A stretch of DNA of 64,000 nucleotides, taken from assembly GCA_963813715.1 (NCBI GenBank), contig CAWFAK010000016.1:384001-448000 (forward strand). Direction: 5' to 3'. A model generated the notes under the pieces. That model was given only the letters and a program-made list of their open reading frames with translations, was not told the origin of the DNA and ran no database searches. This DNA is from an uncultured Planctomycetaceae bacterium (lineage in GTDB: Bacteria; Planctomycetota; Planctomycetia; Planctomycetales; Planctomycetaceae). The stretch's first letter is position 1; each line of letters opens with the position of its first letter. The position numbers were made by a program, and so were the translations under genes. Shown piece after piece: positions 8,246 to 10,039 of this stretch.

Positions 8246-8283
8246 AAGGTCCCTGGGAGAGCGGCTGTGTTTCTTTTCAAGAG

Positions 8284-9237
8284 TTAAGTGGTTGAGATTG
8301 CAGGGTTCCAGTGCGTGTTGTTTTTGACCATCGTGTTGAGGATCACGAGCAGCTTGCGCATGCAGGCGGTGATGAGGACCTTGGGTTTTTTGCCGAGGGC
8401 TTTCAAGCGATCCGAGAAGGCTCTGATGACTGGGTTGGAGTGTCGTGCGCTGAGCGTCGCCATGTACAGGCTACAGCGCACCGAACTTCGGCCGCCGCGG
8501 ATCGCGCGGCGTCCTCGGAACTCGCCGCTATCGCGATTGAAGGGGGCCAGGCCGACCAGTGCGGAGATTTTTCGTCGACTCAGCTTCCCCAACTCGGGGA
8601 CCTCGGCGATCAGGGTTGCACTCGTGCCCGGTCCAATCCCCGGCGCGCTTTGAACAATCTCGGCCTTCTGTTTCCACTCGTCGTCCGATTGGACCAGCGC
8701 GGCGATTCGCTTCTCGAAGCGTCGGATCTGCTTGGTGAGCGCGTTGACGCTCTCCTGAAGGCTCTTTTTAACAAACTTGCTGGCGACGTTTTCTTTGCGG
8801 TTCATTTCGGCGGTTCGCAGCTCGACGAGCTGCCGGCGGCGGACGACGAGGTTTTGCAGTTCGAGCTGTTTTTCCGGGATTTTGGTCTGGGTCCGCGGCA
8901 CGACGGCCTGCCCGAAGCGTGCCAGCACGGCCGCGTCGATCCGATCGGTCTTGGCGAGGATTCCACAGGCTTTGGCGAAGTCCCGGGCTTGCCGCGGATT
9001 GACGACCGCAACCTGATGGCCCGCGTCGATCAGTTCGGCGACGAGGGCCCGCTCGTAACCGCCGGTCGCTTCCACGACGATCAAACACTCTCCGGGAGGA
9101 GGAAGCTTCTCTCGGAGTTGCTGGCGGCCCTTGGAATCGTTTGGCGGCTTGAGCGACGTTCGCTCAGGCAGCACGTGCACGTCGAGGGTCCGTTTGGCGA
9201 TGTCGATACCGACGAAGGATTTGAAGGCGACGTCCAT
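8284..9237 (-). CDS. IS110-family DEDD recombinase/transposase (317 aa)
   Basis: [22 protein letters not shown] (DEDD); C-terminal PGIG...[10 protein letters not shown]...GGRSSVR. Confidence 0.97.
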
Positions 9238-9241
9238 GACG

Positions 9242-9437
9242 ATGTCCCGTCCTTGCGAATGCGAGCTCGAGCGGCGACTGGTGCCACGACGGCTCTGACG
9301 GCTGTTCGGGCTGATCTCATGAGACCGGCGGCGATCCAGCTCTCCCACGGTCTTCTTGGACCTGAGGGCGGACGATCTACCGCCGGCCGCTGTGGGAAAC
9401 CTTGCTTCGCTACGCTTCGCAAGCCTTCCCACAGCTG
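9242..9437 (-). ncRNA. Predicted IS110 bridge RNA
   Basis: 5' hairpin GCUGUGGGAA/UUCCCACAGC. Target loop carries GUCCGCCCU and GGGAGAG; donor loop carries ACAGCCG and GCAAG. These match the element flank and ends. Confidence 0.8.
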
Positions 9438-10039
9438 TCACCATCAAATGCGCAGATTGATCTTTTTTCAACATACAAGGGGACGGGACACGTTTGTTCG
9501 GGTCCAATGTCCAAAGTCCAAGGTCCAAAGTCTTCGGACCGATCGGCAGGCATCGGGTCGGCGGCGGGACCCGACTCGGGGACGGGACACCGGGACGGGA
9601 CACGTTGTTTCACCGAGAAAAGCCCGCGAAAATTGGCGATCACCCCCAGCTCGACGGCGTTTGGCCTGGACCCATCCGCAGCGGGTGGGACAGAGAAGGA
9701 AGGATGGGACGGGACACGTTTGTTCGGGTCCAATGTCCAAAGTCCAAGGTCCAAAGTCTTCGGACCGATCGGCAGGCATCGGGTCGGCGGTGGGACCCGA
9801 CTCGGGGACGGGACACCGGGACGGGACACGTTGTTTCACCGAGAAAAGCCCGGAGAAATTGGCGATCACCCCCAGCTCGACGGCGTTTGGCCTGGACCCA
9901 TCCGCAGCGGGTGGGAGAGAGAAGGATGGGACGGGACACGTTAGTTTCGAAGTCCAAGGTCCAAAGTCCAAGGTCCAAAGTCTTCGGACCGATCGGCAGG
10001 CAGCGGGTCGGCGGCGGGACGGGACACCGGGACGGGACA

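Follow-up and report, generated by a model that had tools for sequence, protein, structure and literature searches.

The DNA considered here (the window) is a stretch of 64,000 nucleotides (nt) of contig CAWFAK010000016.1 from an uncultured Planctomycetaceae bacterium, and it carries on its minus strand, from position 9479 to position 8260, a 1,220-bp insertion sequence (IS) of the IS110 family, in which a recombinase gene is preceded by a 240-nt non-coding left end that is predicted to encode a bridge RNA (Table 1). An earlier interpretation made from the letters of the window, called below the sequence-only reading, had already described this element, and all of its coordinates, as well as the CT dinucleotide cores at the two ends, proved correct. 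In the genome to which the window belongs (7.49 Mb in 18 contigs, 63% G+C), nine copies were found that are 94-100% identical, and alignment with 200 bp of flank showed that all nine run collinearly between CT-TGTATGTTGAAAAAAG and TTGAAAAGAAACACAGCCG-CT, with unrelated sequence on either side. The proposed boundaries are real, because the nine copies align from exactly both CTs and diverge beyond them. The left end begins with TGTATGTTGAAAAAAG (from 9477 onwards) and the right end closes with TTGAAAAGAAACACAGCCG (8280-8262), and a CT is also found at both ends of all 28 copies from other genomes. As is characteristic of the IS110 group, the ends (TGTATG... and ...ACAGCCG) show no inverted-repeat relationship, there is no multi-base target duplication, and the same CT core occupies both junctions. 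Note also that two pairs of copies in this genome (C16:500664-503786 and C5:1206692-1209473) lie in the same orientation, approximately 670 bp and 320 bp apart, respectively, in neighbouring repeat units of the kind described below.

The recombinase matches the Pfam domains DEDD_Tnp_IS110 (PF01548) at 2e-25 and Transposase_20 (PF02371) at 6.7e-17. Only two matches were returned by a phmmer search against all PDB chains, the ISCro4 transposase 9t56 (1.7e-42, residues 7-307) and the IS621 transposase 8wt6 (1.8e-42, residues 8-307). Residues D12, E56, D98, D101 and S237 align opposite the D, E, D, D and S of the composite active site of IS621, which consists of D11, E60, D102, D105 and S241 according to the quoted text of PMC11208158. 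Judged by its sequence, the recombinase belongs to the IS110 group, with an N-terminal DEDD RuvC-like domain and a C-terminal Tnp domain containing the catalytic serine. A longer open frame of 439 amino acids (8284-9603, minus strand) starts from a GTG and runs through the whole bridge-RNA region into the flank; alignments with relatives and with IS621 begin at residues 7-9 of the 317-amino-acid form, and the longer frame is probably a side effect of G+C content and not a longer protein.

Table 1. Coordinates of the IS110-family element and its predicted functional segments in the window.
Feature	Position	Strand	Remarks
Right flank (right target)	8254..8259	-	CTCCC-A; matched by right target guide
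Right CT core	8260..8261	-	Sequence, copy alignments
Right end's last 7 nt (left donor)	8262..8268	-	ACAGCCG
-35 half of junction promoter, in right end	8275..8280	-	TTGAAA; -35-like hexamer kept in relatives' right ends
Recombinase gene	8284..9237	-	317 amino acids (DEDD_Tnp_IS110 + Transposase_20)
Left-end non-coding region, predicted to encode bridge RNA	9238..9477	-	240 nt; fold, covariation
Donor-binding stem-loop	9246..9310	-	CCC/GGG basal stem, GAGCCG/CG-GCUC upper stem
Donor-loop handshake positions	9250..9251	-	GA; G9251 complementary to left flank's last base C; by hand, IS621 scheme
Right donor guide	9252..9260	-	AUUCGCAAG; discontiguous pairing with CT-TGTAT, one G-T wobble, two unpaired bases
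Left donor guide	9298..9305	-	ACAGCCG-U; 7/7 match to right end; U would wobble with first core position
Target-binding stem-loop	9324..9388	-	Basal stem, GAUC/GAUC stem, internal loop, GGUC/GACC hairpin
Target-loop handshake positions	9338..9339	-	CU; C9339 complementary to right end's last base G; by hand, IS621 scheme
Right target guide	9340..9347	-	U-GGGAG-AG, complementary to CT-CTCCC-A/G; 16/16 right junctions
Left target guide region	9365..9373	-	GUCCGCCCU; only GCCCU (9369-9365) contiguous with usual left flank + core
5' stem-loop	9389..9435	-	Fold; changes between copies
-10 half of promoter expected at circle junction	9470..9475	-	TATGTT
Left CT core	9478..9479	-	Sequence, copy alignments
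Left flank of window copy (left target)	9480..9486	-	CCGTCCC, atypical; other copies CCCGGCC, CCCGACC and similar

Folding of the left end from the core to the start codon gave -102.6 kcal/mol (z = -3.44), and none of 200 shuffled sequences folded as well. In the predicted structure, a 5' hairpin (9435-9389) is followed by a long stem-loop (9388-9324), which encloses an internal loop, and then by a third, weaker domain. Relatives of the protein (40-94% protein identity) were collected at 37 loci in named genomes and in 8 further genomes of the same family; they came from Planctomycetaceae, Pirellulales, Elusimicrobia, Nitrospinaceae, Cupriavidus, Microbulbifer and Vampirovibrio. RNAalifold applied to 16 left ends recovered the target-binding stem-loop, with compensatory changes in 13 of its 18 pairs. 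Between the genome copies themselves, U-A is replaced by C-G and A-U by G-C in the 5' hairpin, and G-C by A-U in the target stem; the copy at C5:1208242 has such a compensatory G-C to A-U change in its basal stem. The donor domains of 17 left ends were aligned separately and counted against a hand-written structure consisting of the CCC/GGG basal stem and a six-pair upper stem that one unpaired A interrupts. Pairing was found in 97% of 135 cells and six of nine pairs had changed on both sides, in a structure derived from the same sequences on which it was counted; 0 of 500 shuffles and 0 of 6 slid versions approached the observed pairing. The donor loops of the Cupriavidus and Vampirovibrio relatives, misaligned by MAFFT, entered this tally as gaps or non-pairs.

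Two loci were excluded from the guide counts, L037, whose protein is 58% identical and whose ends were unrecognisable, and L038, whose left end is replaced by unrelated sequence. In the latter (L038:870-1200) the recombinase is 85% identical and the right end is normal, and the sequence standing in place of the bridge-RNA region is strongly palindromic. Of the loci that were kept, L044 is without a left flank since its contig ends there, and L031 has a 1-nt deletion in its right end.

Comparison of the predicted RNA with that of IS621 rests on the numbered nucleotides quoted in PMC11208158 and not on a direct RNA alignment. On this basis, the IS621-type architecture recognised by the sequence-only reading is borne out by the recombinase domains and catalytic residues and by a 5' hairpin followed by two guide loops with covariation. 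The 7/7 donor match it had reported also holds: ACAGCCG (9305-9299) is identical to the last seven nt of the right end, and in each relative examined the donor-loop 7-mer that follows a conserved GA equals the last seven nt of that relative's own right end, with six co-varying versions (ACAGCCG, ACAGTCG, ACAGTTG, ACGGTTG, ACAGATG and ATAGTCA). The other donor segment, given earlier as GCAAG (9256-9252), was rightly positioned but is only part of the right donor guide, the 9-nt AUUCGCAAG (9260-9252). In IS621, A157-U158 and C162-G165 of the right donor guide are described as pairing with donor positions 14-13 and 11-8, while G161 wobbles with T12 and U159-U160 are flipped out (PMC11208158). Placed on CT-TGTAT, AUUCGCAAG fits this scheme base for base, nine RNA bases to seven donor bases. 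The left end of L049 begins instead with TATGTG, and its loop, read by hand, contains CAUAAG matching CT-TATG.

The bases called handshake positions in IS621, which the sequence-only reading had not mentioned, are present as well. According to PMC11208158, each right guide is followed on its 3' side by two bases which, once the strands have been exchanged, pair with the other DNA at positions 6-7, and position 7 co-varies across orthologues. Neither C9339 nor G9251 is able to pair with its own DNA. By a manual count, the target loop in all 12 families, and the donor loop in 11 of 12 (L044 is the misfit), has a first handshake base that complements position 7 of the other DNA; each loop has one co-varying case, U:A in L050 for the target loop and A:T in L046 for the donor loop.

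Target recognition was examined at the natural insertion sites. GGGAGAG (9346-9340) is the complement of CT-CTCCC, as had been proposed, and CT-CTCCC is what stands at all 16 right junctions (nine in this genome, five at loci L031-L035 of a metagenome-assembled genome (MAG) and two in genome G062). The base after CTCCC is A in eight junctions and G in eight, either of which could pair with U9347. Relatives with other loop strands sit beside correspondingly different right flanks, namely GGGUGAG with CT-CACCC (L045), CACGGAG with CT-CCGTG (L039), CCCGUAG with CT-ACGGG (L040), UUGUCAG with CT-GACAA (L049), UAACAAG with CT-TGTTA (L050), GAAUGAG with CT-CATTC (L070) and GGGUAAG with CT-TACCC (L071), and in L046 the right-guide match is only 4 nt. 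Each left end was then set by script against the flanks of all 11 families, with 50,000 permutations. On the right side, the cognate complementary run was about 7 (family means 6.9-7.5) in 10 of the 11 families, against a non-cognate mean of 4.9, and no permutation reached the observed sum. On the left side the cognate mean over all 11 families was 5.8 against 4.7, and 3 of the 50,000 permutations reached the observed sum. To judge from these sequences, target recognition appears to be mostly by the right target guide, over 7-8 nt, the left guide being contiguous with its sites over about 5 nt (GCCCU).

The usual target is the left arm of a hairpin resembling repetitive extragenic palindromic (REP) sequences, and reads gCCCTCACCCCGRCC-CT-CTCCC, loop, GGGMGAGGG. 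Uninterrupted CCCCGRCCCTCTCCC sites number 17 in the genome, and CCCTCTCCC sites number 124. Four of the latter lie in the window (8221, 11849 and 20184 on the plus strand, 20198 on the minus strand) against 0.84 expected, and 1 of 100 shuffles reached four; these positions fit the REP-like elements at 8205, 11833 and 20168 that the sequence-only reading had pointed out. Most REP sites are preceded, genome-wide, by a conserved module of about 50 nt (GGGACGGGACACGTTGTTTCACCGAGAAA...GAGAAAT) and often have GGGACGGGAC after them; what we call REP may be part of a larger composite repeat.

Some elements in this repeat family have variant guides. At C5:1208242-1209473 and L033:961-1200 the left target guide contains ..ACCCCGA.. 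instead of ..GCCCUCA.., in elements that occupy ordinary CT-CTCCC REP sites. The idea that these variant guides read CACCCCG further upstream in the REP was rejected, since a C-rich repeat yields chance matches and the same CT is occupied. Likewise discarded was a one-base DNA bulge, with which 8 nt of the usual left guide could pair to CCCCG(R)CCCT; this fails at the CCGGCCC sites and at the window site, and the IS621 structure lends it no support. A further case is a sister element (L045:961-2200, in the same MAG as L038), whose left end is about 90% alike, whose right target guide is GGGUGAG and which has inserted at the second CT of this REP family, CT|CACCCC. This looks like a natural one-base retargeting, from GGGAGAG to GGGUGAG, that shifted insertion by 12-13 bp in the repeat, from CT|CTCCC to CT|CACCC.

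Joining the two ends via a single CT places TTGAAA 17 nt from TATGTT, as the sequence-only reading had described, and this arrangement, counted by hand, scores 9 of 12 by promoter-scan rules. No sigma-70-like site passes the promoter scan in the linear sequence from 8150 to 9650. In 8 of 11 relatives, also read by hand, the right end contributes a TTGAC or TTGAA hexamer and the left end a -10 of the form TATGNT or TATAAT, which would come to lie 17-18 nt apart; in the three short-ended relatives (Cupriavidus, L040 and L049) the spacing works only if a -10 deeper in the left end is taken. More than half of the sampled words of the element were found in 20 public sequencing runs from 16 studies, all of soil or rhizosphere, among them six RNA libraries, and the run contigs show the element at 95-99% identity, running out into canonical REP flanks. 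The element is widespread, and its transcription is not implied by these contigs, which show neither strand, nor RNA ends, nor RNA as template. The bridge-RNA part is deeper than the gene in two RNA-library runs; contig depth cannot rank the parts of a gene, and nothing is inferred from it.

We consider it very probable that the element is an IS110-family IS with a predicted IS621-type bridge RNA that would guide its DEDD/serine recombinase to CT-CTCCC sites in the REP-like hairpin. By analogy with IS621, it would be excised as a circle, the junction of which would form the TTGAAA-17-TATGTT promoter, only there, and drive the bridge RNA; this RNA would pair with both donor and target DNA, and strand exchange would take place at the CT, helped by the handshake bases C9339 and G9251. 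In this way the circular right-end/left-end junction would be joined to CT-CTCCC sites in the REP-like hairpin.

A number of results weigh against this interpretation. The sequence-only reading had predicted the full target GTCCGCC-CT-CTCCC. Its left half failed: 14 left junctions belong to copies with exactly this left guide, and none reads GTCCGCC or fits all 9 nt. They read CCCGGCC (six junctions), CCGGCCC (three), CCCGACC (two) and, once each, CCCCGAC, CCCAACC and CCGTCCC, the last in the window copy. The predicted 14-mer itself has a single exact occurrence in the genome, which lies outside any REP and is unoccupied. With the left target guide, the usual site shares GCCCU and one further base, giving two mismatches and one wobble in nine, and the left run of 5 in this family lies within the non-cognate background (mean 4.7, maximum 6). 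The variant copies C5:1208242 and L033 are without the U opposite the core T, yet occupy the same kind of site. The agreement between donor guides and right ends is partly circular for single-copy relatives, whose right ends were located via the donor-guide 7-mer; those of the window element, the Vampirovibrio element and the Microbulbifer element were fixed independently by several copies. An Rfam scan of 7500-10500 at E <= 10 gave no family that reached its gathering score, in a release (Rfam 15) that may hold no bridge-RNA model, and the best match was sX15 on the other strand (E = 0.22, below threshold). The contigs of four RNA-library and four DNA runs covering 8254-9481 contain no right-end/left-end joint, and those of the four DNA runs no joint that skips the element. 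Nor was an empty site found in the same-genus genome G062, where the right flank matched scattered repeats only and no locus was syntenic.

Could the family instead be a decaying fossil in this genome, with guide-like matches that were inherited and are no longer used? Six of the nine genome copies carry 1-2-nt indels in the recombinase gene, which also counts against the interpretation we prefer, and in two copies the left guides are altered. The 1-2-nt deletions of three of the six indel-bearing copies fall within the same eight bases (8644-8651, in a TTCAAAGCGCGCC context), and this cluster could be a mutational hot spot and real decay or a systematic assembly error. Such a history is improbable given that three copies are free of indels (the window copy, C5:1086646 and C8:67969), that five copies are 98-100% identical, that the same element, 94% identical, is present in five copies in another MAG and as fragments in a same-genus genome, and that the 20 runs mentioned above hold it. 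We can hardly credit the further possibility that the structured left end is a mere leader regulating the transposase mRNA and that the matches to ends and flanks are chance events in C-rich sequence. The 5-nt left-flank match, being at background for this family, and the recombinase frame that stays open through the whole leader would suit it, but the donor and right-target guide segments change together with ends and flanks in 11-12 families (0 of 50,000 permutations; six donor 7-mers) and the loop strands are placed as in IS621.

The copy in the window occupies an unusual site. Its right flank is a normal CT-CTCCC-A, while its left flank shares only CCCT with the guide, a misfit that the sequence-only reading had overlooked, and a 226-bp tandem array (9480-10039, 2.5 copies, 94% matches) begins directly at its left core. 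We moderately favour the view that this copy is a right-arm-only 'half-match' insertion, because core plus one matching arm is reported to be enough for IS621 insertion in vitro, half-matches explaining many off-target events (preprint 10.64898/2026.08.31.748434, in the passages available). The alternative is that the copy was not inserted where it is now found, and that its odd left flank arose from a deletion, an inversion, recombination between copies or growth of the tandem array at what was originally an ordinary REP site. The position of the left core at the very edge of the array speaks for such a rearrangement, as do surroundings rich in repeats with another transposase gene, and the reconstructed pre-insertion sequence, GTCCCGTCCC-CT-CTCCCAGGG, has no uninterrupted twin elsewhere in the genome (0 matches for five spanning strings). 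Nevertheless, we regard it as rather unlikely: the right flank is that of a normal site, the reconstructed sequence resembles the usual order elsewhere (REP, then the GGGACGGGAC module), there is no second copy nearby as a recombination partner, and a one-arm match reportedly suffices for IS621. GGGACGGGAC, the motif found beside many REP sites genome-wide, occurs within the array as well, and directly beyond the array lies a second, unrelated transposase gene (10053-11408, minus strand; 451 amino acids; DDE_Tnp_1, PF01609, 6.9e-24).

A broader conjecture, which we advance tentatively and with more doubt than conviction, is that this planctomycete clade is naturally 'right-handed', such that the 7-8-nt right guide and the CT provide nearly all recognition, the left guide contributes no more than 5 nt, the REP hairpin may add specificity, and the window copy is a right-arm-only half-match insertion. 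What the element adds to the bridge-recombinase family is a cleanly delimited, multi-copy orthologue from a GC-rich host, with coordinates for each guide segment. It provides natural data on how little left-arm pairing is tolerated and on whether a target hairpin aids specificity, and for both questions the window copy and the apparently retargeted sister element offer test cases at hand. Its earlier designation as a new programmable recombinase orthologue is fair as regards a candidate, although thousands of bridge-recombinase orthologues are already catalogued according to the quoted parts of PMC11208160.

The element is an ordinary IS621-type member of the IS110 group, with no new mechanism. 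As far as the excerpts of PMC11208160 (Durrant et al., 2024) and PMC11208158 (Hiraizumi et al., 2024) describe it, IS621 of Escherichia coli likewise has a CT core, a left end starting with TGTAT and, encoded upstream of the gene, an RNA in which a 5' stem-loop precedes the target and donor loops, as is predicted here. The two also share an 8-nt left donor guide after a G-containing linker, a 9-nt discontiguous right donor guide with a G-T wobble and handshake bases 3' of the right guides, and the -35 of the right end would, as in IS621, meet the -10 of the left end only in the circle. They differ in the right target guide (7-8 nt here, 4 nt in wild-type IS621), in the left target guide's fit to natural sites (about 5 contiguous nt here, 9 nt in IS621), in the last base of the left donor guide (U, a wobble, here; C in IS621) and in the host, a GC-rich soil planctomycete in our case. 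Longer right guides are also reported in some orthologues, and natural targets as mostly 0-2 positions off the guides (Durrant et al., 2024; PMC11208160, in part). The ISCro4 transposase (PDB 9t56), compared by sequence match alone, is as close as that of IS621. ISPpu10 and ISPpu9 of Pseudomonas putida, in the portions of bioRxiv 10.64898/2026.03.19.712850 and PMC12288879 that describe their targets, target REP or stem-loop repeats and also insert into one short GC-rich intergenic hairpin-repeat family at one fixed position, although their repeat family and guides are unrelated in sequence to those found here. Finally, IS1111-group elements with their seekRNA belong to the same recombinase superfamily and follow the same RNA-guided principle, but there the guide RNA lies downstream of the gene, whereas in the window element it lies upstream, as in the IS110 group.

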